A DNA stretch of 64,000 nucleotides. It comes from Planctomycetota bacterium (GTDB lineage Bacteria; Planctomycetota; Phycisphaerae; WQYP01). The notes under the pieces are model-generated. The model was not told where the DNA came from and made no database searches. It saw only the letters and a list, made by a program, of their open reading frames with translations. Shown in pieces: positions 13,365 through 52,468 of this stretch. Location of the stretch: the NCBI GenBank assembly GCA_021831565.1, contig JAKBMM010000011.1, positions 380-64,379 on the forward strand, read 5' to 3'. Position numbers and translations under genes: made by a program. The stretch's first letter is position 1; every line of letters starts with the position of its first letter.

Positions 13365-13733
13365 TCAAGGTCCGGGATCGGGGTCGGGCGGCGGCTTTGG
13401 TACAAGTCCTTGTAAAGACGACACCAACGCGGGCAGATGAATTTGCAGAACGCGCCAGATAATTTCGTCCTGTATGTCGGCGTAATCGTGCGCCAATTTA
13501 TGGCGTTGCCGGACGATCTTGTCCCAGGGAATTTCCGTGTGTGCGGCCTTGAAGTCCGCAGAGACACAGCGCGCCGCTTCCCCGATAATTTCGATCTCGC
13601 GCTCCACGGCGCGACGTGTGCGCCGATCGCCGGCGTACCGTTCAAATTCCAAACCGTTGACCATATTCAAGGCGGATTGGGCCGATTCAAGCATGTCCCA
13701 GAGAAATGCCGCATCGCCGCGCTCATGCCGCAT
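13365..13733 (-). CDS. HepT-like HEPN ribonuclease toxin (DUF86)
   Basis: AVER..EIIGEA, IPW..I..R..LAHDY (R-x4-H) motifs; overlaps the upstream MNT gene. Confidence 0.88.
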   Translation of the reverse strand: MRHERGDAAFLWDMLESAQSALNMVNGLEFERYAGDRRTRRAVEREIEIIGEAARCVSADFKAAHTEIPWDKIVRQRHKLAHDYADIQDEIIWRVLQIHLPALVSSLQGLVPKPPPDPDPGP

Positions 13734-14028
13734 AAATCACCCGCCGCGTGGTCAGTATCTCGTGTCGTCGGAAGGGATTGCGAAGTCCACCTTTGGTGAC
13801 CAAATCCACCGGGCGATGGAACATCGCGGATAATTCATCCTGCATATCCAGCAGGTCAAAAAGACTCCACGGATGGCCCGGTTGAAAACTCACCAGGACA
13901 TCCACATCGCTGTCCAGTCGGAAATCATCACGAAGAACCGAGCCGAATAATGAGAACTCCCGAACCATCCATTTCCGGCAGAACCGTTCGATCTGCTCTG
14001 CGGGCAAAACAATGGGCAGCGTGTGCAT
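13723..14028 (-). CDS. Minimal nucleotidyltransferase (MNT) antitoxin
   Basis: FGSVLRDDF..DSDVDVLV motif; start set at MHTLP (14028) behind an AGGGGAG RBS. Confidence 0.88.
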   Translation of the reverse strand: MHTLPIVLPAEQIERFCRKWMVREFSLFGSVLRDDFRLDSDVDVLVSFQPGHPWSLFDLLDMQDELSAMFHRPVDLVTKGGLRNPFRRHEILTTRRVIYAA

Positions 14029-14206
14029 AGAGGCTCCCCTTATAAAATACCTCGGCAACGTTGCCGAGGCGCCCGCTATCTTAACATACGCGGCGTTGCG
14101 CAGAACGCGGACGGCACGGCTACGGTCTATTTTCACCGGCTCCACTTTTTCGCGGTGCAGCCGCGTTCGGGGGTCGGGCGTCCTGCCAGACATCGTGTAT
14201 CCGCGG

Positions 14207-14342
14207 TGCAAAATCCGATTCACCGGACGTTATTTACCGCGGACGCGGAGGGCCGCAGAGGTTTATAGCCTTTTTTGACCAGCCGCTTCTACCCTCCGCG
14301 TTCCTCTGATTCCTCCGCGGTGCAAAATCCGGGCTAATCACG
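14207..14342. repeat. Dispersed hairpin repeat, direct copy of 8924-9060
   Basis: Near-identical sequence; overlaps the stop codon of the GT fusion gene. Confidence 0.8.
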
Positions 14343-35074: not shown

Positions 35075-35169
35075 CCGGCCCACGGTCCTTTGGAGTATCA
35101 TCCTCTCCTAAAGCCCATCTTCAAAGATGGCTCTCTCGATGGCGTCGCATACACGCAATGAGTTGAGTT

Positions 35170-35443
35170 CTAGTGCTCTGTCAGCCGTGTAATGATGGAT
35201 TGACGGCGGGCCAGAGGGCCGTGGGCGCGAAGCGAGGAGGATGGCGTATGCAAACATACGTTGACGACGAGCGACAAAGCCCACGGCCCTCTGGCCCCCG
35301 CCCGCAGGGTTGGCCGGAAACGGGCCATCTGCGGCGTCGCGGCGGCTCAAGGGGTCTACGGCCCCGGTTTTCGCCGCTGGCTCCTTGCATCTGGCCCATT
35401 TCCGGCCAATCAATCCATCATTACACGGCTGACAGAGCACTAG
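35170..35443. mobile_element. MITE with 34-bp perfect terminal inverted repeats including CTAG
   Basis: CTAGTGCTCTGTCAGCCGTGTAATGATGGATTGA ... TCAATCCATCATTACACGGCTGACAGAGCACTAG. Confidence 0.85.
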
Positions 35444-35467
35444 GCGTTCACGTGGAGAAAAAACACC

Positions 35468-35872
35468 ATGCCGGAAACTTCAGGGGGCAACGGCGAAATA
35501 CGCCGTGATCCCATGACCGAAATGGCCGCCGAACGCACCATGCTGGCCTGGATTCGCACCGGCCTGGCGCTGATGGGATTTGGGTTTGTGGTGGCCAAAT
35601 TCGGACTGTTTTTACGAAAACTCTCGGAATTGCGCGGCCTGCATATCCAGGTTCCCAAGAATCAATCAATGTCGTTATGGAGCGGCGTGGCCCTGGTGCT
35701 GCTGGGCGTGGCGGTGAATGTAACCGCGGCGATACGCTTTGCGCGCCTGATCCGGCGGCTGGGGCGGGGACTGCGGCCCGCCGCCGCCAACTGGAAAGCG
35801 GCGGTGATTGTGGCCGTTGTCATGGCGGGCATCGGCGTGGCGATCGCCGCGTACCTGGTGCGATTGGGGTAA
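35468..35872 (+). CDS. YidH/DUF202 membrane protein
   Basis: A.ERT.LAWIRTG.ALMGFG; three TM helices. Confidence 0.88.
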   Translation: MPETSGGNGEIRRDPMTEMAAERTMLAWIRTGLALMGFGFVVAKFGLFLRKLSELRGLHIQVPKNQSMSLWSGVALVLLGVAVNVTAAIRFARLIRRLGRGLRPAAANWKAAVIVAVVMAGIGVAIAAYLVRLG

Positions 35873-36776: not shown

Positions 36777-37316
36777 ATGGATGAAAAACCGCCGGTGATT
36801 CTCAGCGTCCCGCTCTCCTCGGTTCAGCCCGACCCGGCCAATGTGCGGCGTCATGGCGCGCGGAACCTCGCGGCGATCCAGGCGAGCCTGCGCCGCTTCG
36901 GCCAGCAGAAGCCGATCGTGGTGGACGAGCGGGGCGTGATCCGGGCCGGCAACGGAACTTATGAGGCGGCCCGGCAACTTGGCTGGACGCATATCCATAT
37001 CATTCGCACGCCATTAACCGGTCCGGACGCCATCGCGTACGCCATCGCCGACAATCGCACGGGCGAGTTGGCGCAATGGGATGAGGAGGCGTTAAACCGC
37101 CAGATCGCCGCCCTGGATGGCGATCTCCTCAGCGCCGCCGGTTTTAACCAGGCCGAACTGGCCAAACTGATGGAAACCGGCCGGAACGAACCCGTGGAGA
37201 AAATGCCGCCGGTGATTTATGAGCTCGCGGTTGGTTGCGCCAACGAGGCGGACCAGAAGCAATTGTTCGAGCGGCTTACCGGCGAGGGACGAACATGCCG
37301 GGTGCTGACAATATGA
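36777..37316 (+). CDS. Phage-type ParB N-terminal (ParB/Srx) domain protein
   Basis: P.N.R.H, SL..FG...PIVVD, AGNG..EAA..LG and IADNR..E...WD; GGAG RBS before ATG 36777. Confidence 0.82.
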   Translation: MDEKPPVILSVPLSSVQPDPANVRRHGARNLAAIQASLRRFGQQKPIVVDERGVIRAGNGTYEAARQLGWTHIHIIRTPLTGPDAIAYAIADNRTGELAQWDEEALNRQIAALDGDLLSAAGFNQAELAKLMETGRNEPVEKMPPVIYELAVGCANEADQKQLFERLTGEGRTCRVLTI

Positions 37317-38389
37317 AGATCGAAGCGGAAGTTTCATGTCCAATCGTGGATTCATTCCGGGTTCGCCAGATCGCGGGGATGTTTGATCTGCCGGTAAATG
37401 GCGTAAGTTCTCAGCGGTTCTCCGTTGAAGTTCCGGGTCTGGATGAGCCTTGGCAAATCGGGCTGATTGTCGGCCCTTCCGGCAGCGGAAAAACCACGAT
37501 CGCCCGCCAGGCGTTTGGAGCGGCGCTGCGGGACCCCCCGCCCTGGCCGGCGGACCGGGCGGTGATTGATTGTCTGGGAGACACGGATATCCGCCAAACC
37601 ACGCGGGTTCTGGCGGCGGTTGGCTTTTCCAGCCCGCCGGCGTGGCTGCGGCCCTGGCACGTACTTTCCAATGGCGAGAAATTCCGCTGCGACCTGGCCC
37701 GGTTGCTGTTGGGAGAAGGGGGAGAATCAAAAGACAAATTGGCTCTCATGGACGAATTCACCAGTGTGGTGGATCGTACCGTCGCGCGGATTGGTTCGGC
37801 GGCTCTGGCCGGGGCGATCCGCGGTGGAGCCGTCGCCAGGCGTTTTGTGGCGGTCTCTTGTCATTACGACATTGTTCCCTGGCTATGCCCGGATTGGGTG
37901 GTGGATATGGCCACGCAATCGCTGGCAAGGGGGAAGCTTCCGCGACCGTCCATCCGCCTGGAAATCCGGACCTGCGATAAAGGCCTTTGGGCCATGTTCC
38001 AGCGTCATCATTATCTGAACGGCCATCTTCCGTCCTGCGTGCGCTGCCGCGTGGGTTTGGTGGAAAATGAACCGGTGGCGTTCGCGGCGATCGCTCCGGT
38101 GGCGGGTTACCGGGGCTATCAACGTTTCAGCCGGGTGGTGGTGCTGCCGGATTATCAGGGCATTGGCATCGGCGGAAAATTTCGCGACGCGGTGGCGGCT
38201 TTGGAAGCCCCGCGTTGCCGGCGTTTGAGCCTTGTGACGAGCCATCCGGCGATGATTCGCTCGCTGGCGCACAGCGGGCGATGGCGATTGCGGTCGGTCG
38301 GCTTTTCGCACCCGGACGCCGCCGGACTTAAGGCCAAGCCGGTCGGTTGCCGGAGCCGGCGGGTGTGTTCTTTCGTATGGAAAAACTAA
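37313..38389 (+). CDS. ABC-type ATPase fused to a GNAT acetyltransferase domain
   Basis: GPSGSGKT, LSNGEKFR, MDEFTSVVDR and SCH; then F..HHYL, RVVVLPDYQGIGIG (acetyl-CoA motif) and TSHP. Confidence 0.82.
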   Translation: MKIEAEVSCPIVDSFRVRQIAGMFDLPVNGVSSQRFSVEVPGLDEPWQIGLIVGPSGSGKTTIARQAFGAALRDPPPWPADRAVIDCLGDTDIRQTTRVLAAVGFSSPPAWLRPWHVLSNGEKFRCDLARLLLGEGGESKDKLALMDEFTSVVDRTVARIGSAALAGAIRGGAVARRFVAVSCHYDIVPWLCPDWVVDMATQSLARGKLPRPSIRLEIRTCDKGLWAMFQRHHYLNGHLPSCVRCRVGLVENEPVAFAAIAPVAGYRGYQRFSRVVVLPDYQGIGIGGKFRDAVAALEAPRCRRLSLVTSHPAMIRSLAHSGRWRLRSVGFSHPDAAGLKAKPVGCRSRRVCSFVWKN

Positions 38390-38742
38390 TGAAATCAGCG
38401 GAGAGAATAGAATCGCCCGGCGGCTTAACAACCGCCGTTACTCAAGCGGATGTGGAAAAGCTCGCCGCCGGCGGGGCGCCGGATGAGGACATCGCCGACC
38501 TGCTGGACATCAGCCGCTCCCAGCTCAGGAAACGCTTTGGCCGGGCGCTGCGCCGCGGCCGGGCGTCGCTGCGCGTCAATCTGCGCCGCGGTCAGCTTGT
38601 CCTGGCCCTGGGCCGGGCGCCCGACGTGCGCATGCTGCTGTGGCTGGGGCGGCAATATCTGGGCCAGAAGGATGACTCGGCCCCGCCCGGCGCGCCGCCA
38701 TTGGAAAAGACATATCTCAACGTGGACACAGACAAGGTATGA
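38389..38742 (+). CDS. Putative terminase small subunit / HTH protein
   Basis: HTH (EDIADLLDIS) and ML.WLG.QYLGQKD; coupled directly upstream of TerL. Confidence 0.62.
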   Translation: MKSAERIESPGGLTTAVTQADVEKLAAGGAPDEDIADLLDISRSQLRKRFGRALRRGRASLRVNLRRGQLVLALGRAPDVRMLLWLGRQYLGQKDDSAPPGAPPLEKTYLNVDTDKV

Positions 38743-40169
38743 AAAGCTCCCGGCGATCCCGCCGACACCCGGAACCGGATGCGGCCGCGGAAAAAACACC
38801 GGACCGGCTTGATCCCGCACGCCGGCCCTATCGTCCGTGGGGGGCGGCGGAAAAATTATGTTACGCCCGGGACCGCGAAATTCTTCTGGCGGGACCGGCG
38901 GGTACGGGTAAAACCCGCGCCGCCCTGGAAAAAATCTTCCTGTGCCTCCAGAAATATCCCGCCATGCGCGCCTTGCTGGTCCGAAAAACGCGGGCCAGCC
39001 TCACCCAGTCCGTCCTGGTCACCCTGGAGGAAAAAGTTTTTCCTCGGGGGCATCCGGCGCTGGGCGGTCCCGGCCGCGGCTACCGGCACGGTTACCGATT
39101 GGAAAACGGCGCCGAGTTGGTGCTCGGCGGGCTGGACAACCCCGATCGGATCATGTCCAGCGAATACGACATGGTGCTGGCCTGCGAAGCCACCGAATTG
39201 ACCATCGAAGACTGGGAAAAACTTCTCACCCGCCTGCGAAACGCCGTGCTGCCCTACCAACAGGCCATCGCCGAATGCAACCCGGCCCATCCCGGCCACT
39301 GGCTTAACGCCCGGGCGGACGCCGGCTTGATGCTGCGTCTCGTGAGCCGGCATCAGGATAATCCGACGCTTTTCGATCGCTCCACCGGACGCTGGACCGG
39401 CGCCGGCGAGAACTATTTGCATACGTTGCGGCGGCTTTCCGGAGTGCGGCGCAAACGGCTGCTCGACGGCCTCTGGGCGGCGCCGCAGGGGCTGGTTTAT
39501 GAAATGCTGCCCGATCACGTGATTTCCATTCCGCCGCCGCAAGGCCGAACGCTTCGCTGTTACGCCGGCATCGACTGGGGTTGGCGTGATCCCACCGCGG
39601 TAGTGGTCGGCCTGTTGTGCCGGGATTCGTGCCTGTACGTGGTGGACGAGCTTTATGAAAGCCGCCTGCCGCTGGAGGAATTGGCCCGCCGGCTCGACGC
39701 GTTGGTGCGGCGATGGGATATCGAGATATTTTTTGCCGACCGCTCGCGGCCGGAATTGATAGACCATCTCCGCCGGCGCGACATTGCCTGCCGGCCCGTC
39801 CCGGCGCACGGCATTGAATCCGGTATTGCCATGGTCGAATCGCGCCTGCTGGCGGGGGGGTTGAAGATTTCCGCCCGCTGCCGCCGGCTCATCGACGAAG
39901 CGAGCCAATACCAATATGCGGCCGATGCTCCAACCACGGGCAACTCCCTTCCCATACCCCTTAACGATCACGCCATGGATGCCCTGCGTTACCTGGTGGC
40001 GGCGATGGATATGGGCCGCTCCGATCCCGCCGCGTTCGAGCCGGTTTCTTCCGTCGCCTCCCTCCCGTCGTCCGCGCCGAAAAGTGCCGCAGGAGATTTG
40101 CCAAACGCCGCTATGGAGAATACCCGTTCGCACGAGCGATTGAATTTCAACCAAATATGGGGAGAATAA
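38739..40169 (+). CDS. Terminase large subunit (PBSX-like)
   Basis: GPAGTGKT, VRKT..SL, G.D.P..I.S.E, EATE, CNP; nuclease motifs GIDWG..DP, AD.S.P and DHAMDALRY. Confidence 0.88.
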   Translation: MKSSRRSRRHPEPDAAAEKTPDRLDPARRPYRPWGAAEKLCYARDREILLAGPAGTGKTRAALEKIFLCLQKYPAMRALLVRKTRASLTQSVLVTLEEKVFPRGHPALGGPGRGYRHGYRLENGAELVLGGLDNPDRIMSSEYDMVLACEATELTIEDWEKLLTRLRNAVLPYQQAIAECNPAHPGHWLNARADAGLMLRLVSRHQDNPTLFDRSTGRWTGAGENYLHTLRRLSGVRRKRLLDGLWAAPQGLVYEMLPDHVISIPPPQGRTLRCYAGIDWGWRDPTAVVVGLLCRDSCLYVVDELYESRLPLEELARRLDALVRRWDIEIFFADRSRPELIDHLRRRDIACRPVPAHGIESGIAMVESRLLAGGLKISARCRRLIDEASQYQYAADAPTTGNSLPIPLNDHAMDALRYLVAAMDMGRSDPAAFEPVSSVASLPSSAPKSAAGDLPNAAMENTRSHERLNFNQIWGE

Positions 40170-41736: not shown

Positions 41737-42567
41737 CTATTGTCTACTTTCAACTGTTCTACTTTCTCGCGGCCTTGCCGCGTGCTCTACTATCTTTCTC
41801 CGCCGCGTCAGCAATCCCAACCCGCCCACCGCCAGCAAGGCCGCCGTAGCCGGTTCGGGGATCGTTTCCGTCGGGAACTCGGTCTTCGTGGTTCCAGTGT
41901 ATTTCTGCACGTTCGCCTTGGGCGATAGCGTAAAGTCCACCACATTCGTGAGCGAATAAGCCAACTGCGTTTTGTTGAGCGTTACCAGCGGCGGTGGGGC
42001 AAGCGTGAAAGTCTCGGAGTTGCCGGAGTATGACTCGGAACTTATCCCTGTTGCGGCGACGCCCGTTCCGGATGTCGTGTTCTGTCCGTTATACGGATCG
42101 GCGAAGCTCTGCATGGTCATGGCGAGAGTGCCTTTGGCGAATTCCCCGTCGCCGCTTTGAGCAAGAATCAGGGTGAAGGAGGAATTGGCGCCGGGACCCG
42201 TCAGGCCGGTATCTCCCAGGAGCAGCTCCAGGCTGGCTGTCGATGAGGTATTATTATTGGTCAAGTTGCGCGTGGCGAAGGTGATATAAGACGATGAGGA
42301 CGTGGCGATGATCGTCGCGTCTACGGCGCCCGAAAAGTCGCCGAATGAAAAGGTCCCGGAGCTTGGATAGTTAAAAAACGTGGAAGTGGTGTCCACGACG
42401 TTCACCAGTGCGCCCCCGTTGACGCTGGATTCGGACAGATCAAGTTCAAAATCAGCTTTGGCGCTTGTCGATGGGAGTAATGCGGCACCCGCCGCCAGAG
42501 ACAGGAAAACGATTCCCGGAACCAAAGTTCCCTTAAGGATCAGCCGGAACCTTGCCGCCGTGGTCAT
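41737..42567 (-). CDS. PEP-CTERM protein, paralog of 46813..47592
   Basis: Signal peptide; S/T-rich body; IPEPATAALLAVGGLGLLTRRRK. Confidence 0.9.
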   Translation of the reverse strand: MTTAARFRLILKGTLVPGIVFLSLAAGAALLPSTSAKADFELDLSESSVNGGALVNVVDTTSTFFNYPSSGTFSFGDFSGAVDATIIATSSSSYITFATRNLTNNNTSSTASLELLLGDTGLTGPGANSSFTLILAQSGDGEFAKGTLAMTMQSFADPYNGQNTTSGTGVAATGISSESYSGNSETFTLAPPPLVTLNKTQLAYSLTNVVDFTLSPKANVQKYTGTTKTEFPTETIPEPATAALLAVGGLGLLTRRRKIVEHAARPRESRTVESRQ

Positions 42568-42692
42568 GATGTGTCTCCTTGTATGGAGAGTGGCGGTATC
42601 CCCGCCCGCGGCGCCGCCGCCGCTCTGCGCTCAACTTTCTACTCTCCCGCTGCTCTACTTTCAACTATATACTTTCTTCCGCGGCGACGCAT

Positions 42693-42814
42693 TAGCAGCC
42701 TGTCGGACTTAGGACATGCTTGCCAGCAATGCTAACGTAGGAGGCATGAGTACGACACGAATGGTAAATGTAGATCGGAACACACCAATGCTGTTGCCCC
42801 CGGATCTGCGTGAC
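42693..42814 (+). mobile_element. Truncated IS1182-family element (left end and transposase N-terminus)
   Basis: AGGAGG RBS, then ATG 42746 MSTTRMVNVDRNTPMLLPPDLRD, resembling the IS1182 start (DR..x.LLPP.L.DW); cut off by a repeat. Confidence 0.65.
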
Positions 42815-43060
42815 TTATCCCGAACATTTCACCGCCGAGACGCAGAGATCGCAGAGGTTTATTTTTATTGGTGACACGGTCAGCAGGCTGACCCTTTAAA
42901 CATTATCCGCTTCCACCCTCCGCGTTCCTCTGTTTCCTCCGCGGTGCAAACTCGATTTACCGGACGTTATTTACCGCGGACGCGGAGTACCGCAGAGGTT
43001 TATAGCTTGTTAACCATCCGCGCGGTCTTGGCGTCTTGGCGGTTAATTCCGTGTGAACAC

Positions 43061-44293
43061 TTACCAACTTTCCACTCTCTTCCGCCTTCGCGCCAGCAGT
43101 CCCATTCCGCCCACGGCCAGCAAAGCCAGCGTGGCCGGTTCGGGTGTGGATAGGCTGAAGATCGTGCCGTAATCGCTGCTTCCGCCATGGAGGGTCATTC
43201 CATACAAGGTCGAGCCGGATTGGATCAGCGAGCCGTAGGGCCATGCGCCATCCGCGGCCCCGCCGGTAAATGAATGCAGGACCTGAAAGCCGGTTCCAAT
43301 GTCGGCGATGGAAAAGATCGTGCCATCACCGCCTCCGCCATTGGAGGTCATTCCATACAGGGTCGAACCGGATTGGATCAGCGAGCCGAGGGGACCTGCG
43401 CCATCCGCGCCGGTAAATGAATGCAGAAGCGTAATAGGTCCCCCGGCGGCAGGGATGGAAAAGATCGTGCCGAAATTGCCGCTTCCGCCGGCGTAGGTCA
43501 TTCCATACAAAGTCGAGCCGGATTGAATCAGCGAGCCCCAGAGGGGATATGCGCCATCCGTGGCCCCGCCGGTAAATGAATGCAGAAGCGTAACGGTTCC
43601 CCCGGTGTAAGGTATGGAAAAGATCGTGCCGAAATTGCTACTTCCGCCGGCGGAGGTCATCCCATACAAGGTCGAGCCGGATTGGATCAGCGAGCCTTGG
43701 GGATATTTGCCATACGTGAATGAATGCAGAAGAGAATCGGCTCCACCGGTGTCAGGTATGGAAAAGATCGTGCCGGTAGCAGCGCTCCCGCCACTGGTGG
43801 TCATCCCATACAAAGTCGAGCCGAATTGGATCAGCGAGCCGTAGGGATTTTCGCCGTCCGCGGACCCGCCGGTAAATGAATGCACAAGCGTAGGGTTCCC
43901 ACCACTGGTGCTCTCGGAAAAGATCGTGCCATAATTGCCGCTTCCGCCAAAGAGGGTCATTCCATACAAGGTCGTACCCGATTGGATCAGCGAGTCCCAG
44001 GGATTTGCGCCATCCGCGGTCCCGCCGGTAAAGGAATGCAGAAGCGTAAAACTATTTCCAGTGTCCGCGATGGAAAAGATCGTGCCTTTATTATTGCCGC
44101 TTCCGCCATCGGAGGTCATTCCATACAAGGTCGAGCCGGATTGGATCAGCGCGCCTCTGGGATATGCGCCATCCGCGGTCCCGCCGGTAAATGAATGCAG
44201 CACCTGAAAATTGCTGGCTTGGGCATAACCGACCCCCGCCGCCAACGCGCCGCATAATCCGGTTGCCAGCATTGCCTTTTGAATCGTTTTCAT
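43061..44293 (-). CDS. PEP-CTERM protein with 7 GloVer (TIGR03803-like) repeats
   Basis: Seven LHSF.G...GA.P...LIQSGSTLYGMT..GG....GTIFS units; TPEPATLALL tail. Confidence 0.9.
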   Translation of the reverse strand: MKTIQKAMLATGLCGALAAGVGYAQASNFQVLHSFTGGTADGAYPRGALIQSGSTLYGMTSDGGSGNNKGTIFSIADTGNSFTLLHSFTGGTADGANPWDSLIQSGTTLYGMTLFGGSGNYGTIFSESTSGGNPTLVHSFTGGSADGENPYGSLIQFGSTLYGMTTSGGSAATGTIFSIPDTGGADSLLHSFTYGKYPQGSLIQSGSTLYGMTSAGGSSNFGTIFSIPYTGGTVTLLHSFTGGATDGAYPLWGSLIQSGSTLYGMTYAGGSGNFGTIFSIPAAGGPITLLHSFTGADGAGPLGSLIQSGSTLYGMTSNGGGGDGTIFSIADIGTGFQVLHSFTGGAADGAWPYGSLIQSGSTLYGMTLHGGSSDYGTIFSLSTPEPATLALLAVGGMGLLARRRKRVESW

Positions 44294-44562
44294 GGTTTTC
44301 TCCCTAATGTCCATAGACGACCAGCAGGCTGGCCGGTTAACCAAATTTACTTTCCGACTCGCACCGCTCGCGGCTTTGCCGGCGCATTATCCCGAACATT
44401 TCACCGCCGAGACGCAGAGGTCGCAGAGGTTTATTTTTATTGGTGACACGGTCAGCAGGCTGACCCGTTAAACACAGTTTTCCTTGTGCTCTACTTTCTT
44501 TCGCCGCAGCCCGGCCCGTGCATGCCACGGGCCGGGCCAAGTTGAATAGCTTGAATAGCCGT

Positions 44563-45570
44563 TCAAGCTATTGCCTTCCGCCTGCGCTTAAGCAGCAATC
44601 CCAACCCGCCCACGGCCAGCAAAGCCAGCGTGGCCGGTTCGGGGACAGTGCCAAGCTGCGCTGACACGTTGTCAATTGCCAGGTTGTTGCCGGCAAAATT
44701 AGTTTGCCAGTTGGTGGGCCAGAGGTAATTGGTGCCACCGAGAGTGGAACTTGGCGCTCCGTTCGGAAAATTAAGTGCCGCGGTAGTCAGAAGACCACCT
44801 GTGAGCCCTAGTTGATTGCCTGAATTATCGTAAACCGCAAAAGCAACACCGGCGGGATCGGTAGTACCATTACCTGTTTTGCTATATGCCAGAGTAAAGG
44901 TATACCAGCCGTTCTTGGTGATTGTGACAAAAGGCGTGTTTGGCGTGGTGCCGCCGTTTGCATTCACATCTACAGTTCCCGCAGTTGGCACGGTGAATTG
45001 AAAATCGGACTCCGTCGCCCAGTTCGGGGCGCCAGTGGTATCACTTGCGGTTTCGTCGATCTCGAAAGCAGTACCACCACCAGTAGGCGGCGCCCACGCC
45101 CCGGTCCCGGTAACAGGCACATAAACACTCACAGATTGAGTAAATGCACCGGGATAAGTAGCCATCATGCCGGCGTATGCAGGGGTATCAGTGGAAGTGC
45201 CGAATAGGCTGTAACCCGCGTCGCCTCCATTGTGAATGTTGCCATTGATATTATTTCCAAGCACCGCATAGGAGGAGCTACCGCCGGCGCCGCCAATCAA
45301 ACCAAGTGGTGATGTGCCATTACCACTACCCGGTCCATATCGGGTGATGGAATAAGTGCCGGTACTTGTTGCCACACTTTGGCTCTGACCTATGCCTGTG
45401 GCTGTGCCGCTAAACCACCAACCGCTTACACCATTGGCTGAATTTTCATATCCTCTGGAATAAGGAACATCCGCCTTGATGATTCCGGCGGACAACAGGG
45501 CTATTCCCGCCGCCGCCGCAGCGCCTAAGCCGAGCATGGTTTTGGTTGAGGATGATTTGTTCTTAAACAT
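44563..45570 (-). CDS. PEP-CTERM protein (MFKNKSSSTK leader family)
   Basis: Signal peptide and VPEPATLALLAVGGLGLLLKRRRKAIA. Confidence 0.9.
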   Translation of the reverse strand: MFKNKSSSTKTMLGLGAAAAAGIALLSAGIIKADVPYSRGYENSANGVSGWWFSGTATGIGQSQSVATSTGTYSITRYGPGSGNGTSPLGLIGGAGGSSSYAVLGNNINGNIHNGGDAGYSLFGTSTDTPAYAGMMATYPGAFTQSVSVYVPVTGTGAWAPPTGGGTAFEIDETASDTTGAPNWATESDFQFTVPTAGTVDVNANGGTTPNTPFVTITKNGWYTFTLAYSKTGNGTTDPAGVAFAVYDNSGNQLGLTGGLLTTAALNFPNGAPSSTLGGTNYLWPTNWQTNFAGNNLAIDNVSAQLGTVPEPATLALLAVGGLGLLLKRRRKAIA

Positions 45571-45788
45571 GGTTTACTCCTTAATGTCCATAGATGGCCA
45601 GCAGGCTGGCCGGTTTACCAAACCGACTCGCAACACGCGGGTCGGAACTTTCCTGTGGCAGGCTTTCTCGCCTGCGTTTGTTTTCGCGGGCACTCGCGCC
45701 CGCCTATCCCATAGCCGCTCCGCTGTGCCTCCTTTCGCGGCTTTGCCGCCGCTCTACTTTCAACTTTCTACTCTCTTTCGCCGGCGCA

Positions 45789-45955
45789 TTAGCCCCAACA
45801 TTTCACCGCCGAGGTTGTTGAAATGAAAGACCATATAGAGATTCTTTCCCACAACACCTCAGATACAGACTCTTTGCCATCTCATCATTTCTATCCATTT
45901 ACTCCACCGTGGCCTCAGCGCACTCTGCGCCTCTGCGGTGCAAACTCCGGGTTAG
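45789..45955. mobile_element. TTAG-flanked MITE-like element
   Basis: Related to 34879-35074; flanked by 56-bp imperfect direct repeats of a PEP-CTERM gene tail. Confidence 0.6.
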
Positions 45956-45977
45956 CGGCTTTGCCGCCGCTCTACTT

Positions 45978-46691
45978 TCAACTCTCTACTCTCTTCCGCC
46001 GCCGCATTAGCAATCCGAGTCCGCCCAGAGCCAGCAGCGCCAGCGTGGCCGGTTCGGGGGCGGTGGTTGTATAGCTGAGGGTGACATTCGATCCGCCCGC
46101 CAGGCTCAGTTCCAGGGTATTACCCATGGAAAAGGGATTGCTTCCATTGGGACTGAACCCAGCCGTTTGCTGAACCAGTGTCTGCGTTTGGGGAAAACCG
46201 CCGCTTGAATAGGTCACGGTGTATGAAGGCGTCTGCACCGGCGGCGGCGTGGTCAGAGAGAATTGGCCGTCGGCCGAGTCGGCGCCGCTGACATAAGTGG
46301 CGGAGTCGCCGCTGGTGGCGGCATTGAACGTCACGCTGCCGGAACCGGCCAGGGTCATGGAGGAGCCGACCGGCGAGAAACCGGTATCCCATAAATTGAT
46401 CGCCAATATATCGGGCCCCACTGTCGTGTCAGTATTCTTTACGCCCACACTAATGGCACTGATCTGCGGCGTATTCGAAGAGCCGGAATTGGATGTGGCG
46501 TCGTAGATGGTGATGTCAAATGTGCCGACCGTAACATTCGACTGATTAATAACGCCGCCACTGCCCGTGAAACTGGTAATTGGGCCGCCGTTGGCTTCGA
46601 ACTGCGCCACAAAGCTCGCCTGGGCCGCCGAGGCGGCCAAACTCATCGCTGCCGCGGCGAGCACCATAGATCCGAAAATCTTGAATTGCAT
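45978..46691 (-). CDS. PEP-CTERM protein
   Basis: Signal peptide ending AQA; APEPATLALLALGGLGLLMRRRK. Confidence 0.9.
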   Translation of the reverse strand: MQFKIFGSMVLAAAAMSLAASAAQASFVAQFEANGGPITSFTGSGGVINQSNVTVGTFDITIYDATSNSGSSNTPQISAISVGVKNTDTTVGPDILAINLWDTGFSPVGSSMTLAGSGSVTFNAATSGDSATYVSGADSADGQFSLTTPPPVQTPSYTVTYSSGGFPQTQTLVQQTAGFSPNGSNPFSMGNTLELSLAGGSNVTLSYTTTAPEPATLALLALGGLGLLMRRRKRVES

Positions 46692-46812
46692 AAAAAACTC
46701 CCTTGTAAAAAGCATTGTTATTTTTTCTTGGTGACACGGTCAGCAGGCTGACCCGTTAAACATCGTTTTCCTTGTGCTCTACTTTCTCGCGGCTTTGCCG
46801 CGTGCTCTACTT

Positions 46813-47592
46813 TCAACTCTCTACTCTCTTTCTCCGCCGCGCCAGCAATCCGAGTCCGCCCACAGCCAGCAACGCCAGTGATGCCGGTTCGGGGATTGTT
46901 CCCGACGGGTTCTCGGTCAGCGTGGTCCCGTTGTAGTTGAGCTGGCTTACATTTATGTTTGCCCCGGATGATAGCGTGATGTCCACCACATTCGTGAGCG
47001 AATAGTCCAACTGTGTTTTGGTCAGCGTCGCCGTGGTCGGATTCGATAAAAGCGTGAAAGATACGGGGCTGGTGGTGTTGTTTGTCAATGATAACACCGA
47101 GCTTACCGGTGTCGCGGCGACGCCCGATCCGGATGTCGTGTTCTGGCCGTTATGCGGATCGGCGAAGCTCTGCATGGTCATGGTGAGAGTGCCGTTGGTG
47201 AGTTCACCGCCGCCGCTTTGGGCGAGTTCTAGAGTGCCGGTATTTGTGGGGCCGGGTCCCGTAAAACCTGTATCTCCCAGGAGCAGTTCTATGGTGGCTG
47301 GGTTTGGGCCCGTGTTATTATTGGTCAGGTTGATCGTGGCGAAGGTGATGTAACCCGACGACGCGCCGGCGGCGGGATCATTGGTTGCCGCGCTTACGGA
47401 TCCCGAAAAACCGCCGAATCCACCGGTGGGGGTGGAATAGGACAAAGAGGTGGACGGAGTACTTGCTACGTTCACCAGTGTGCCCCCGCTGGGCACGGCC
47501 AGATCAAGTTCAAAAGCAGCTTTCGCGCTGTTCGGCAGAAGCAACGCCGCGCCCGCCGCCAGGCATAAAATTTTCACTGTGATGTTTGGCAT
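46813..47592 (-). CDS. PEP-CTERM protein, paralog of 41737..42567
   Basis: Shares YITFAT.NLTNNN, ELLLGDTG and MTMQSFADP.NGQNTTSG; IPEPASLALL tail. Confidence 0.9.
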   Translation of the reverse strand: MPNITVKILCLAAGAALLLPNSAKAAFELDLAVPSGGTLVNVASTPSTSLSYSTPTGGFGGFSGSVSAATNDPAAGASSGYITFATINLTNNNTGPNPATIELLLGDTGFTGPGPTNTGTLELAQSGGGELTNGTLTMTMQSFADPHNGQNTTSGSGVAATPVSSVLSLTNNTTSPVSFTLLSNPTTATLTKTQLDYSLTNVVDITLSSGANINVSQLNYNGTTLTENPSGTIPEPASLALLAVGGLGLLARRRKRVES

Positions 47593-47664
47593 GTTAAGAC
47601 TCCTTAAGATTCCTTACATAGTTGTCAGCTACCTCGTGGTAGCCGCGGCATTCCGCCGCGTCGC

Positions 47665-47717
47665 GTAATGCAGGCTTCCAGCCTGCTTATTCCGGCGGGC
47701 GAGACGCCCGCTCCACA
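47665..47717. repeat. REP-like inverted hairpin pair
   Basis: GCAGGCTTCCAGCCTGC and GCGGGCGAGACGCCCGC-TCCACA; a similar hairpin lies at 51106-51132. Confidence 0.45.
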
Positions 47718-47854
47718 ATTCCACAATTCCATTCTCCAGGCTTTTCATGTCTCGGCGGTGAAAGCCCCGAAAACCTTACGCGGCCGTTCCACAAAACCCG
47801 GCGGAGCGGGAGAGTAACGCCCCGCCGGGTCAGAGTGGATATTGGCCGGGCCGT

Positions 47855-48013
47855 TCAAGTGCGATGCCGGCGAATGTCCGGCCACCAGTCGCATTGAACC
47901 ATCATCCAGATCAACCACCCCAGAACCGGCGCCGCCGCCGCCAGTGGCAGGGAAACGATTCGCCGGGCCAAGGGTTGATTCACGCTCATGGAAAACCGTG
48001 CCGTGGTAGTCAT
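47855..48013 (-). pseudogene. Degenerate 5' end of a PEP-CTERM paralog
   Basis: AAGGAG RBS then MTTTARF...L...IVSL.LAA.A..L, resembling the MTTAARF... leader of 41737..42567; stops early with no PEP-CTERM tail. Confidence 0.5.
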
Positions 48014-48182
48014 GACAGTTTTCTCCTTTACGTTTTCCGGGCCCCAGCCCGGCCCGTGTCTCAAAACACGGACCGGGCCATTCTCCCGGCTCGCTGGGGA
48101 CCTGATCCGTACGCGCCGGAATTGAGCCGTTTCTTCGCGGGCGGGGCCTTTTTAAGAGGTTGGCCCACGAAGTCATCAAACT

Positions 48183-48827
48183 TCAAGCCAGGCTTTTATG
48201 GCGACGCCGGACCAGCAATCCCAAGCCGCCCAGGCTTAGCAAACCGAGCGTGGCTGGTTCGGGGGTGGCATACTGGACTCCCTGCGGGCCTACTGTCCCT
48301 GTGTCTATGCCGTCAATGGAAGGTGGTGTCCAGCCGGGGACGCTCGCGTCATTGCTGTTAAGCCAGTTCAACACGAGATCCTGGTTGTTCGCCGAGGTGT
48401 CGTAGATATCGCCCAGATCATAAACATTTGGAAATGGCGAGGCGCTGGCATTACTGCTGTTTAGGATAACATACGGGGGCGTCGAACCAGCTGTTGAAAA
48501 ACTCGACAGATTGCCTTCGGCAACATACGAAGATGTCGATGTGAGCACGCCCCAGCCGCCGGCGGCGTCATACTTCGTCAACGGCTCTTGGTAATTAGCA
48601 ACGAGAAATTGATTAGCGGTGGAAGTTCCGTCAGCAGTCGTAGTGACACCATAACCACCAAATTCGACATTGTTACCCACAAAGAGGGTATCGCCCGTGA
48701 CGGTGTTGACCCAGAGGGTCATCTGTCCGGATGGCGGCGGCGCGAAGCTGTTGCCGGCAAAAGCAGCGCCGGTGGAAAGCATGCATCCCGCGGCCAGCGA
48801 GGCCATAAATGGAAGTTTACGTGACAT
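48183..48827 (-). CDS. PEP-CTERM protein
   Basis: Start MSRKLPF behind AAGGAG; TPEPATLGLLSLGGLGLLVRRRHK. Confidence 0.9.
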   Translation of the reverse strand: MSRKLPFMASLAAGCMLSTGAAFAGNSFAPPPSGQMTLWVNTVTGDTLFVGNNVEFGGYGVTTTADGTSTANQFLVANYQEPLTKYDAAGGWGVLTSTSSYVAEGNLSSFSTAGSTPPYVILNSSNASASPFPNVYDLGDIYDTSANNQDLVLNWLNSNDASVPGWTPPSIDGIDTGTVGPQGVQYATPEPATLGLLSLGGLGLLVRRRHKSLA

Positions 48828-49238
48828 GATTTTCTCCTTATTGTCCATAGACGGCCAGCAGGCTGGCCGGTTTACCCCCGGCTCGCAACACACGAGCCGG
48901 GACGGCCAGCAGGCTGGCCGGTTAACCAACCCGACTCGCAACACGCGGGTCGGAACTTTACTGTGGCAGGCTCTCTCGCCTGCGTTTGTTTTCGCGGGCG
49001 CTATCACCCGCCTATCCCATATCCGCTCCGATGTACCTCCTTTCGCGGCGCTGCCGCCGCTCTACTTTCTTCCGCGCCGCCGCATTAGCCCGAACATTTC
49101 ACCGCCGAGACGCAGAGAGCGCAGAGGTTTATTGGTGACATGGTCAGCAGGCTGACCCGTTAAACACAGTTTTCCTTGTGCTCTACTTTCGCCCCAGCCC
49201 GGTCCGTGCATGCCACGGGCCGGGCTGTGAATAGACTT

Positions 49239-50153
49239 TTAGGCTATTGCCTTGCGTCTGCGTTTGAGCAACAATCCCAATCCGCCCACGGCCAGCAAAG
49301 CCAGCGTGGCCGGTTCGGGGACTACTGCAATGCTGTCCGGGTAATCCAACCCCGTGACCAGTGAGGCATTCACCGTACCGCCGGCAGTGGTATATTCTCC
49401 AATCGTGTTGTTGGCCGTATTCAGCTCAAACAGGTCTGATCCCGAAACGGCAATGCCGTTCGGTTCTCCCAACCCCGTGACCAGAGAGGCGTTCACCGTG
49501 CCGCCCGAGGTGGTATATTCGCCGATCGTGTTGTTGCCTTCATTTGTGACAAACAGGTCTGATCCCGACACGGCAATGCCGGACGGGCCATTCAACCCCG
49601 TGACCAGCGAGGCATTCACTGTGCCGCCCGTGATGGTATATTCGCCGATCGTGTTGTTGCCATAATTCGAGACAAACAGGTCTGAGCCCGAAACGGCAAT
49701 GTCGGTCGGGCTATTCAACCCCGTGACCAGTGAGGCATTCACCGTGCCGCCCGTGATGGTATATTCGCCGATCGTGCTGTTGCCATAATTCGAGACAAAC
49801 AGGTCTGAGCCCGAAACGGCAATGCCGGACGGGCCATTCAACCCCGTGACCAGAGAGGCATTCACCGTGCCGCCCGTGATGGTATATTCGCCCATCGTGC
49901 TGTTGCCATAATTCGCGACAAACAGGTCTGATCCCGAAACGGCAATGCCGTTCGGTTCATCCAACCTCGTGACCAGAGAGGCATTCACCGTACCGCCGGC
50001 ATTGGTATATTCGCCGATCGTGTTATTGGAAAAATTCGTGACAAAGATGTTTCCGCGCGCGCTCGCAGGCATGAGCGCCGAACCCGTCGCTAACGCCGCC
50101 GCGGCGCCTAAGCCGAGCATGATTTTGGTTGAGGATGATTTGTTCTTAAACAT
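49239..50153 (-). CDS. PEP-CTERM protein with six 41-aa NHL-like repeats
   Basis: Six LFV.N....TIGEYT..GGTVNASLVTGL..P..IAV units (123-bp period); MFKNKSSSTK leader. Confidence 0.9.
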   Translation of the reverse strand: MFKNKSSSTKIMLGLGAAAALATGSALMPASARGNIFVTNFSNNTIGEYTNAGGTVNASLVTRLDEPNGIAVSGSDLFVANYGNSTMGEYTITGGTVNASLVTGLNGPSGIAVSGSDLFVSNYGNSTIGEYTITGGTVNASLVTGLNSPTDIAVSGSDLFVSNYGNNTIGEYTITGGTVNASLVTGLNGPSGIAVSGSDLFVTNEGNNTIGEYTTSGGTVNASLVTGLGEPNGIAVSGSDLFELNTANNTIGEYTTAGGTVNASLVTGLDYPDSIAVVPEPATLALLAVGGLGLLLKRRRKAIA

Positions 50154-50210
50154 GGTTTACTCCTTAATGTCCATAGATGGCCAGCAGGCTGGCCGGTTTA
50201 CTTGTTTGTG

Positions 50211-50244
50211 CCGGCCCGGCCCGTGCAAAAACACGGGCCGGGCC
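50211..50244 (-). terminator. GC-rich stem-loop downstream of a PEP-CTERM gene
   Basis: GGCCCGGCCCGTG..CACGGGCCGGGCC; relatives at about 44509-44538, 48046-48079 and 49197-49225; no U-tract, so it may be a stabiliser instead. Confidence 0.45.
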
Positions 50245-50258
50245 AACTTAATAGCCGT

Positions 50259-50987
50259 TTAAGCTATTGCCTTGCGTCTGCGTTTGAGCAGCAATCCCAG
50301 GCCGCCCACGGCCAGCAAAGCCAGTGTGGCCGGTTCGGGAGTGGAGGTGATACTCATTGAACTAATATAGGCGGTTGCATTATTGCCACTTGAGCCATAT
50401 GCGCCAATAGAGGCCCACGCGGCATTTACCATCATATCGCCATAATCAATCCCATTATATGGAGTATCATAAATGCTTGACAACTGCACGTTCTGCTCTG
50501 CCCACGTATAGGTCTTGGTATTCCATACCCCTACTGTTGATGAGCCGTCCAGTGTATAGGCGTTGGTGTTGCTTCCAAAGTTAATGATATCAAAATTGTC
50601 TCCATTGACATCACTGACGCCAAAAAGGGTATACGGCTGGCCAGGTCCCGTAGTACTAGGCACAGTAATAGACATACTGTCATATCTTAGAGCACCTAGA
50701 TTACCATTGTATGCGGGAGGTGTTCCAACCCATGCTTCCGTCCAATAAGCACTATTGGTAATAGTCATAAGAGCGGATCCACCATAACTGCTAGAATAAC
50801 CGGCACTATATGAATCGGTGCCGCCCGTAGTCTTATAACCACCATATGACACGATATTATTTGTCGGAACCCAACCGGTGCCGCTAATTGTCGTTGTATT
50901 CGCAAACAATGACCCGGCTGACAAAAAAGCCGCCGCGGCGCCTAATCCGAGCATGAGTTTGGTTGAGGATGATTTGTTCTTAAACAT
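50259..50987 (-). CDS. PEP-CTERM protein (MFKNKSSSTK leader family), AT-rich body
   Basis: TPEPATLALLAVGGLGLLLKRRRKAIA. Confidence 0.9.
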   Translation of the reverse strand: MFKNKSSSTKLMLGLGAAAAFLSAGSLFANTTTISGTGWVPTNNIVSYGGYKTTGGTDSYSAGYSSSYGGSALMTITNSAYWTEAWVGTPPAYNGNLGALRYDSMSITVPSTTGPGQPYTLFGVSDVNGDNFDIINFGSNTNAYTLDGSSTVGVWNTKTYTWAEQNVQLSSIYDTPYNGIDYGDMMVNAAWASIGAYGSSGNNATAYISSMSITSTPEPATLALLAVGGLGLLLKRRRKAIA

Positions 50988-52099: not shown

Positions 52100-52283
52100 C
52101 AAGGAAAACGGTGTTTAACGGGTCAGCCTGCTGACCGTGTCACCAAGTGAACAGTTGACAGGAGAGCTCCAGGAAACGGTGTTTAACGGGTCAGCCTGCT
52201 GACCGTGTCACCAAGTGAACAGGTGACAGGAGAGCACAAGGGAACCGGTGTTTAACGGGTCAGCCTGCTGACCGTGACACCAA
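52100..52283 (+). repeat. Three tandem copies (about 69-bp period) of the GGTCAGCCTGCTGACC hairpin repeat
   Basis: Same unit as 40184-40274; the linkers are nearly identical to each other. Confidence 0.9.
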
Positions 52284-52468
52284 CAAAATAAACCTCTGCG
52301 GCCCCCTGCGTCCCCCGCGGTAAATAACGCGGTGAGCAGGGCACATGGAAATTGATTTACTTTGGGTAGCCGAAATCGCTACAATAAGGGCGACTGGAGA
52401 TTCGGGCGCCAAAAGACCAGGGCGTAACTCCGGGTGGAAAGATTTGCTTTACCGCGAGGTATTCGACC

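Follow-up and report, generated by a model that had tools for sequence, protein, structure and literature searches.

Introduction

Why does a planctomycete chromosome carry an operon of phage packaging genes between two host genes, with no portal, capsid or integrase gene beside it? We addressed this question for a stretch of 64,000 nucleotides, here called the window, from a Planctomycetota bacterium (assembly GCA_021831565.1, contig JAKBMM010000011.1; GTDB lineage Phycisphaerae, WQYP01). The window is nearly the whole of a 64.9-kb contig (C50) in a genome of 2.8 Mb, 86 contigs and 95% completeness (G000). The operon, called the cassette below, encodes a protein with a ParB/sulfiredoxin fold (ParB-N), an ABC-type ATPase fused to a GNAT acyltransferase (ABC-GNAT), a small helix-turn-helix (HTH) protein in the position of a terminase small subunit (TerS), and a terminase large subunit (TerL).

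An initial annotation, made from the letters of the window, had taken the cassette for a domesticated module, for example the part of a split gene transfer agent (GTA) that packages DNA. Selection, co-divergence with the host and a search of the genome all favour that leading inference. We consider it probable that the cassette serves as packaging module in a GTA-like (viriform-type) particle system that derives from a phage, is inherited vertically and has been dispersed.

Gene transfer agents are known from a small number of lineages, and in every case a phage was tamed independently. Planctomycetota are difficult subjects for genetics, and their mechanisms of horizontal transfer are poorly known. 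Among the papers listed on the subject, no title or opening of an abstract describes a gene transfer agent in Planctomycetes or Phycisphaerae. A well-supported candidate would add Planctomycetota to the phyla with this route of gene exchange, and the case shows how far such a set of genes can scatter while under selection, with each module alone among housekeeping genes.

Genes of the cassette

The cassette consists of four intact genes that overlap at each junction: ATGA at 37313-37316, TAATG at 38387-38391 and ATGA at 38739-38742. Sequence, profiles and alignments all agreed with the initial description of these genes as intact and overlapping, with their motifs retained, between a metallo-beta-lactamase-fold (MBL) hydrolase gene and truD (Table 1). 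TerL and ABC-GNAT are each encoded once in G000.

Table 1. Coordinates of the cassette, its flanks and the other phage-type genes of G000 (nucleotide positions are those of the window for C50; aa, amino acids; MITE, miniature inverted-repeat transposable element; REP, repetitive extragenic palindromic)
Feature	Contig	Position	Strand	Match or remark
MBL-fold hydrolase, host gene, upstream flank	C50	35875..36531	+	PF00753 9e-33
MITE-like dispersed repeat, ~155 bp, inverted ends	C50	36592..36746	.	30 bp upstream of ParB start
ParB-N (ParB/sulfiredoxin-fold) protein, 179 aa	C50	36777..37316	+	phrog_620 3e-37
ABC-type ATPase (aa 1-~210) fused to GNAT acyltransferase (aa ~220-358), 358 aa	C50	37313..38389	+	phrog_11143 1.2e-88
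Small HTH protein in TerS position, 117 aa	C50	38389..38742	+	phrog_309 1.3e-5
TerL, 476 aa, N-terminal packaging ATPase and C-terminal RNase-H-like nuclease	C50	38739..40169	+	PF04466, phrog_2
REP-like ~45-bp palindrome-containing repeat, two tandem copies directly after TerL stop	C50	40185..40275	.	dispersed repeat
truD (tRNA pseudouridine synthase D), host gene, downstream flank	C50	40265..41590	+	PF01142 3.3e-99
GT2 glycosyltransferase	C58	12.1-13.6 kb		homologue sits between capsid and adaptor in colinear elements
HK97 capsid, single gene	C58	18.8-20.2 kb		PF05065, 145 bits; family search
Portal and S78 prohead protease	C58	29.2-31.5 kb		portal PF04860, 1.6e-39; tblastn from relatives' proteins
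Adaptor / head-completion / tail-completion gp17 block, ended by 128-aa tube-like protein	C36	23.4-25.6 kb		tblastn

The second gene is predicted to encode an ABC-type ATPase joined to a GNAT-fold protein, with motifs and fold both matching. Its residues 1-328 align with positions 1-317 of the 357 in phrog_11143, a phage family with no assigned function. In an 18-row alignment of orthologues, the ABC motifs (Walker A GPSGSGK; signature LSxGE, here LSNGE; Walker B D147-E148; H-loop H184) and the acetyl-CoA motif of the GNAT half (QGxGxG, here YQGIGIG, with Q282, G283, G285 and G287) are invariant. The Pfam match to ABC_tran was just below threshold (22.8, cut-off 25), and the Pfam GNAT families were below their cut-offs too. 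A profile of the ABC-GNAT family matched ABC nucleotide-binding domains in the PDB at 3e-19. The AlphaFold2 (AF2) model of the protein has a predicted local distance difference test (pLDDT) score of 93.6, and Foldseek aligned it with ABC domains and with the small GNATs 1y9k, 9mto and 2ae6 (template modelling (TM) score by target of 0.65-0.70 for the GNATs).

ParB-N scored below the Pfam cut-off for ParB_N (PF02195; 21 bits, cut-off 26.3) and matched 11 other ParB-like PHROGs in addition to phrog_620. Across 17 orthologues it has 61 invariant columns, and it ends in a conserved C-terminal domain of ~35 aa.

The 117-aa HTH protein is probably TerS, as its position and its translational coupling to TerL suggest, and the gene is kept in 16 loci. 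The match to phrog_309, a terminase small subunit family, is its sole specific one. Pfam gave generic HTH families below cut-off, and a profile search of the PDB gave no TerS, weak matches to LuxR-type HTH proteins (E ~0.05) and spurious matches to designed repeat proteins.

TerL scored 36.7 bits against Terminase_3 (PF04466; cut-off 23.2) and 7e-33 against phrog_2. In a 12-row alignment, its Walker A motif (GPxxTGK; GPAGTGKT here), E150 and the nuclease residues D279, D334 and D414 are invariant. Throughout the clade, including the colinear phage-like copies described below, Cys or Phe takes the place of the Asp that is usual in Walker B. An assignment of TerL as a PBSX equivalog was rejected; the TIGR01547 score of 48.1 is below the equivalog cut-off of 105.

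Phage relatives of the cassette

Judging from its relatives in phage genomes, the cassette is of phage origin. An ABC-GNAT protein was found in 61 of 50,697 phage records, at 36-40% identity. Genes 1-4 of Gordonia phage Ligma encode a ParB-like protein, ABC-GNAT, a small open reading frame (ORF) product and a terminase, and the portal gene follows a few genes further on. Lactococcus phage P335 (orf23-28) encodes the ABC half and the GNAT half in two genes, with TerS, TerL and portal downstream of them, and in the Mu-like phage phiE255 the ABC-GNAT protein adjoins a formyltransferase-like gene. The Ligma and P335 loci share with the cassette the order ParB-like protein, ABC-ATPase (plus GNAT), small protein and TerL, as well as the match to phrog_11143. 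They differ in that the portal and head genes follow TerL in the phages whereas truD follows it here, and in that the copy here is chromosomal, single-copy and co-diverging with its host. The initial annotation took it as known that such cassettes occur in phages, which is correct for Ligma and P335. Modification of DNA as part of packaging by phage loci of ParB and terminase large subunit genes is a published prediction (PMC4738411).

The nearest TerL loci in IMG/VR (80 kept) are at most 46% identical to TerL over its full length. A portal gene was detected in 52 of the 80, and in the 33 listed loci longer than 12 kb it lies directly after TerL wherever it was found. None of the 80 loci had an ABC-GNAT match at E<=1e-5.

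We infer that ParB-N and ABC-GNAT act together because natural fusions of the two exist and their adjacency is conserved. The ABC-GNAT family has 595 cluster representatives at E<=1e-30 among 1.84 billion, and ~10 of the best 150 carry an N-terminal extension of at least 200 residues. Four of these extensions were tested. P0039 is a ParB-ABC-GNAT fusion that aligns with the whole ParB-N protein (E 2e-30), and the extension of P0047 aligns with the ParB profile (hhalign 85%). In P0061 and P0013 the likeness is weak and confined to the short C-terminal domain. The cassette thereby highlights a large, uncharacterised phage family of ABC-ATPase-GNAT proteins that is tied to ParB-like proteins by gene order and fusions.

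Head and connector genes in the same genome

Genes for a phage-type head are present elsewhere in G000. The initial annotation had called the cassette an orphan without portal or capsid, and had proposed that the genome be searched for isolated genes of these kinds. Its description holds for the window and the contig; it does not hold for the genome, where we found portal, protease, capsid and connector genes on two other contigs, C58 and C36. The search used tblastn with the portal, protease and connector proteins that adjoin the cassette in relatives as queries, and the capsid was found by a family search.

In this fragmented assembly the head-tail genes occupy at least five sites, spread over three contigs. 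Between the protease and the capsid on C58 there is a gap of ~9 kb, in which FRG, DNA-methylase, nucleotidyltransferase and ResIII-helicase genes are found. When the ORFs of three colinear phage-like contigs from relatives were compared with all of G000, the only matches were at these sites, in the GT2 glycosyltransferase gene of C58 and in two non-phage genes. C50, C58 and C36 have no integrase gene, and all five tyrosine-recombinase matches in G000 are on other contigs. The model of the 128-aa protein on C36 has a pLDDT of 70; its best folds are mainly tail-tube proteins (monocin, Sf11, lambda gpV and that of the Rhodobacter capsulatus gene transfer agent (RcGTA), 6tba), all weak matches with E of at least 3e-3. 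A 66%-identical homologue of this protein was found.

Several neighbours of these genes were set aside or simply recorded. A 678-aa protein downstream of the capsid on C58 was placed outside the conserved set because it is genus-limited, with a homologue in the same-genus genome G001 and one 35% match in G019. A 356-aa protein beside the C36 connector genes was rejected as a phage part; it is secretin-like and belongs to a large Planctomycetota cluster. A 500-aa protein that resembles pectate lyases and tail spikes is also encoded downstream of the capsid gene. The segment of C58 at ~21.2-28.0 kb, with its FRG-domain, N6/N4 DNA methylase (823 aa), nucleotidyltransferase and ResIII helicase (890 aa) genes, has the look of a restriction or defence island.

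Distribution and genomic context in relatives

The modules occur together in the same genera. We surveyed 60 relatives, 36 from the same family and 24 from other families, with genera labelled g1-g17. Full-length ABC-GNAT (E<1e-60) was present in 18 of the 36 family genomes; other matches among the 60 relatives were weak and to the ABC half alone. The remaining markers were tallied at E<=1e-5, where some matches are weak or partial. Capsid, portal and TerL were each found in 23 of the 36 family genomes and the adaptor in 22. Among the 24 genomes of other families, portal and adaptor were found in none, capsid in two, weakly, and TerL in seven, again weakly and in the nuclease part only. All five markers are in the same eight genera (g1, g2, g3, g6, g7, g8, g11 and g13). 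There was no TerL, capsid, portal or adaptor match at this threshold in g5, g9, g10, g12, g14 or g17; g16 had one weak TerL match alone, and g4 had weak matches only. In g15, a single 19-kb contig has capsid, portal, TerL and adaptor in colinear order; their identity is lower, ABC-GNAT is missing, and the set looks like a related yet separate element.

The order of the four genes is kept in relatives at 51-65% protein identity, and the flanks differ. Only G001 (91% complete) shares the MacB-OEP-DUF202-MBL side. In G033, the protease-portal, cassette and connector blocks are neighbours in mixed or inverted orientations, with DUF4143 and DUF2961 genes interrupting them. In G028 and G018, the portal-protease pair is the only part of the head gene set that adjoins the cassette; in G018, TerL is on a separate contig and HEPN/DUF499 and Fic genes come after TerS. 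These contexts, read from the assemblies, picture what appears to be one ancestral cluster that was pulled apart differently in each lineage.

We weighed the possibility that the cassette functions by itself, either as an anti-phage or packaging-interference system directed at incoming phages or as a chromosomal DNA or protein acylation system that kept its terminase. The four genes form a compact, translationally coupled unit and shift together from one genomic context to another; the cassette is apart from all head genes in G000, and it adjoins the HEPN/DUF499 and Fic genes in G018. In addition, there are two weak resemblances to PADLOC models, of ParB-N to the N-terminus of a methyltransferase and of the ABC part to mad3/mad8. 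However, no system model in PADLOC-DB 2.0 fits the set, which gave partial domain matches only (MTase_II N-terminus, mad3/mad8 ATPase and REase_I). Moreover, every genus with the cassette also has capsid, portal and adaptor, head genes are beside the cassette in G033, G028 and G018, and in phages the same cassette is the start of a head-packaging operon. We consider a function independent of the head genes unlikely.

Two further observations concern related loci. At G020:C70 10424-16585, in one g6 genome only, ParB has as direct neighbours the genes of a primase-helicase (801 aa) and of an SNF2 helicase (1104 aa). In other families of the class, genes for an ABC-like ATPase and a TerL-like protein are found 2-3 kb apart, with 26-36% identity to single domains (G042:C1 at ~1.174-1.178 Mb, G043:C66, G060:C2, G051:C7, G055:C127 and G046:C199), and there were no head genes within 10 kb in the three pairs examined. 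These pairs may be an older or parallel version of a lone packaging island.

Selection and descent

The cassette is under purifying selection and is vertically inherited with its host. We determined the ratio of nonsynonymous to synonymous substitution rates (dN/dS) in five within-genus pairs, G000/G001 and four others. Values for the cassette overall were 0.06-0.29, with 0.06-0.29 for ParB-N and 0.06-0.20 for TerL; in the four other pairs, each cassette gene was at 0.06-0.27. The dS between G000 and G001 was 0.31 for ParB and 0.38 for ABC-GNAT, values similar to the 0.18-0.34 of four host genes in the flanks.

Trees built by maximum likelihood for ABC-GNAT and for RecG from the same 12 genomes have every supported grouping in common and similar branch lengths. 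The groupings in both are (G000, G001) with (G007, G021); (G003, G019); (G013, (G002, G018)); and (G022, G008), with G020 on a long branch. The capsid gave a broadly similar order: its identity to G000 is 96% within the genus and 67-82% in other genera, and the corresponding values for RecG are 93% and 56-69%.

These measurements are the comparison of synteny and dN/dS that the initial annotation had suggested, and they found purifying selection in all four genes together with co-divergence with the host. Absence of the cassette from this locus in relatives, combined with relaxed selection, had been named there as a sign against domestication. The first half of that description is borne out, in that the cassette is at this locus in the same genus only; the second is not, as selection is not relaxed.

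The same data bear on whether the genes are debris, that is, leftovers of one or several old prophages that have no present function. In favour of this are the scattering of the genes, the host and defence-type genes that interrupt them, the searches that gave no tail, lysis or regulator genes, and the internal stops in a few orthologues. Against it, each of five independent within-genus pairs shows purifying selection on the four cassette genes, which are intact; their catalytic motifs are invariant across eight genera, and the capsid is more conserved than RecG. We regard it as very unlikely that these genes are without function.

Flanks and repeats

The cassette lies at least 24 kb from either end of C50 and from any other structural gene found, and its GC content is like that of the flanks. 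The statement in the initial annotation that the 64 kb contain no other phage genes was upheld within the limits of our scan: there were none in 37 of the 51 window ORFs of at least 70 aa (Pfam) or in five further ORFs of unknown type (PHROGs), the scan leaving out the 2948-aa ORF at 40-8886 and small ORFs. The upstream MBL gene is 94% identical and syntenic in G001, where ParB starts 54 bp downstream of it.

Dispersed repeats lie at both ends of the cassette. The MITE-like repeat upstream has 104 blastn matches in 45 G000 contigs (self included), shows 50-fold depth spikes and unitig breaks in four metagenome runs, and is missing at this spot in G001, where the intergenic region is only 54 bp. 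This element may supply or disturb the promoter of the operon. The REP-like repeat downstream has a 16-nt core that occurs 11 times in seven G000 contigs and 42 blastn matches, and unitigs break there. We considered the tandem copies after TerL as an attachment (att) site and rejected this because the repeat is genome-wide. Many assemblies break beside the cassette because two families of dispersed repeats bracket it. Candidate excision or absence variants were also rejected: the joints in four metagenome runs have sides of 20-34 nt at dispersed repeats and were read as assembly-graph links, in data where no metagenome piece spans the whole 9 kb. The DNA occurs in mine-drainage and sediment habitats, and none of the 20 sequencing runs listed for the locus is an RNA run.

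Some relatives have a second, more distant copy of the genes in a colinear arrangement. Sets of 19-22 kb in G033 (C66), G015 (C110) and G032 (C147) have the order TerS-TerL-portal-protease-capsid-glycosyltransferases-adaptor-terminator, with no tape-measure gene seen; identities are 33-55% in G033 and G032 and 41-70% for G015:C110. They may be prophages that glycosylate their capsids, or capsid-forming satellites, with kinship to the ancestor of the scattered set. They also hold a sigma-like regulator, two GT2 glycosyltransferases, an FkbM methyltransferase and small ORFs.

A still-mobile element, either an inducible prophage or a satellite of the capsid-forming phage-inducible chromosomal island (cf-PICI) type that only looks scattered owing to fragmented assemblies and insertions, would fit the resemblance of these colinear sets to capsid-forming satellites and the many relatives with contigs that end near the cassette, but we judge it highly improbable, since in G000 a single 64.9-kb contig has the cassette with host genes on either side that G001 shares, the dispersed repeats at both cassette ends explain the contig breaks, there is no integrase on C50, C58 or C36, the cassette tree follows the host tree, and the colinear sets are second, more distant copies. 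A full prophage at this locus in relatives would have spoken against domestication, according to the initial annotation; head genes do adjoin the cassette in two g3 genomes and one g2 genome, and never as a full prophage. The genes in G000 share with cf-PICIs a dedicated TerS (here a probable one), TerL, portal, protease, capsid and connector set and the lack of a recognisable long-tail module. They differ in that no integrase, excision or replication genes were found with them, in being non-contiguous and vertically inherited across genera, and in including tail-completion and tube-like genes. Each of the three alternative explanations is contradicted by at least one test, though each keeps a small probability.

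Proposed function

We return to the reading that we favour, in which the cassette serves a dispersed GTA-like particle system. The portal, S78 protease and HK97 capsid genes of C58 would supply the procapsids. The HTH/TerS-like protein and TerL would dock on the portal, where the RNase-H-like nuclease would cut DNA and the ATPase would pump it in. The C36 adaptor, head-completion, tail-completion and tube-like proteins would then close the head and attach the tail. Capsids would thus be made and filled by TerL, probably with host DNA.

ParB-N and ABC-GNAT would be an accessory pair kept from the phage ancestor, and they may modify DNA or protein during packaging. ParB-N might bind or clamp DNA at the packaging site and bring in the ATP-driven ABC-GNAT, which would use acyl-CoA to acylate DNA or a packaging protein. 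In its most specific form, an ATP- and acyl-CoA-dependent machine of ParB-N and ABC-GNAT that loads at the packaging site and acylates either the packaged DNA (as a base modification) or the terminase/portal complex, this proposal is unlikely. If it is true, the clade has a host-owned particle system that exports chemically marked DNA, and the pair would be a new kind of DNA modification enzyme in the first gene transfer agent of Planctomycetota.

Two known systems offer partial parallels for such a pair. A ParB-like phage partner is required by one class of phage DNA thymidine dioxygenases (bioRxiv 10.1101/2025.08.14.668559). As there, a ParB-like gene here lies near a terminase and a neighbouring enzyme gene; the partner there is a TET/JBP-type dioxygenase, whereas here it would be ABC-GNAT. 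TmcA/NAT10 likewise has a P-loop ATPase and a GNAT in one polypeptide and is a precedent for ATP-coupled base acetylation. However, the ATPase of TmcA (PDB 2zpa, Foldseek rank 29) is of the helicase type and that of ABC-GNAT is of the ABC type, with a TM score of 0.29 and a root-mean-square deviation of 12.8. We take this likeness as an analogy of architecture and claim no membership.

The proposed system can be compared with RcGTA. Both have a host-inherited set of HK97-type head, portal, protease, terminase, adaptor, stopper, terminator and tube genes, both descend vertically under purifying selection, and both occupy several loci with no integrase or replication genes found beside them. The system here would be of independent origin, in another phylum than Alphaproteobacteria. 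RcGTA has one main cluster plus accessory loci, whereas the head-tail genes here are more widely spread; ParB-N and ABC-GNAT are in the packaging operon here and are not known from RcGTA. A further difference is that tape-measure, baseplate, lysis and regulator genes were not identified here.

Several points weigh against a GTA-like system. The tape-measure and major-tail families PF10145, PF06199 and PF04630 had no match in G000, a search of three families that may have missed divergent genes. Baseplate, lysis and regulator genes were not identified among the selected G000 ORFs that were scanned, so that the particle gene set as found is incomplete. It is because these tape-measure, baseplate, lysis and regulator genes were not found that we hold our confidence at a moderate level. 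Part of the marker tallies could stem from colinear elements, given that the family has such sets. The search for TerL gave no match in G001, where the contig stops 268 bp beyond ABC-GNAT. All of the genomes compared are fragmented metagenome assemblies. Between G000 and G001, dN/dS for the cassette (0.21-0.26) was somewhat above that of the flanks (0.09-0.19). Internal stops are present in the portal of G003 and of G021 and in TerL of G019, one in each, and are real breaks or assembly errors. Finally, the D5_N/Prim-Pol primase-helicase next to ParB in G020 hints at a mobile context in that genome.

Other features of the window

Repeats are found at other places in the window. The REP-like repeat has the palindrome GGTCAGC...GCTGACC, with further copies at ~52100-52290 and at other intergenic sites; several diverged copies are between PEP-CTERM genes. 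A second dispersed repeat (~275 bp, with inverted ends of 34 nt) lies at 35150-35520 between the OEP and DUF202 genes and has 48 matches in 23 contigs.

Two groups of host genes were also recorded. Downstream of truD, at 41737-50984, there are at least seven genes for PEP-CTERM-anchored secreted proteins, interleaved with the REP-like repeat. At 13365-14220 there is a pair of genes for a HepT-like RNase and an MNT nucleotidyltransferase, a type VII toxin-antitoxin pair by family names.

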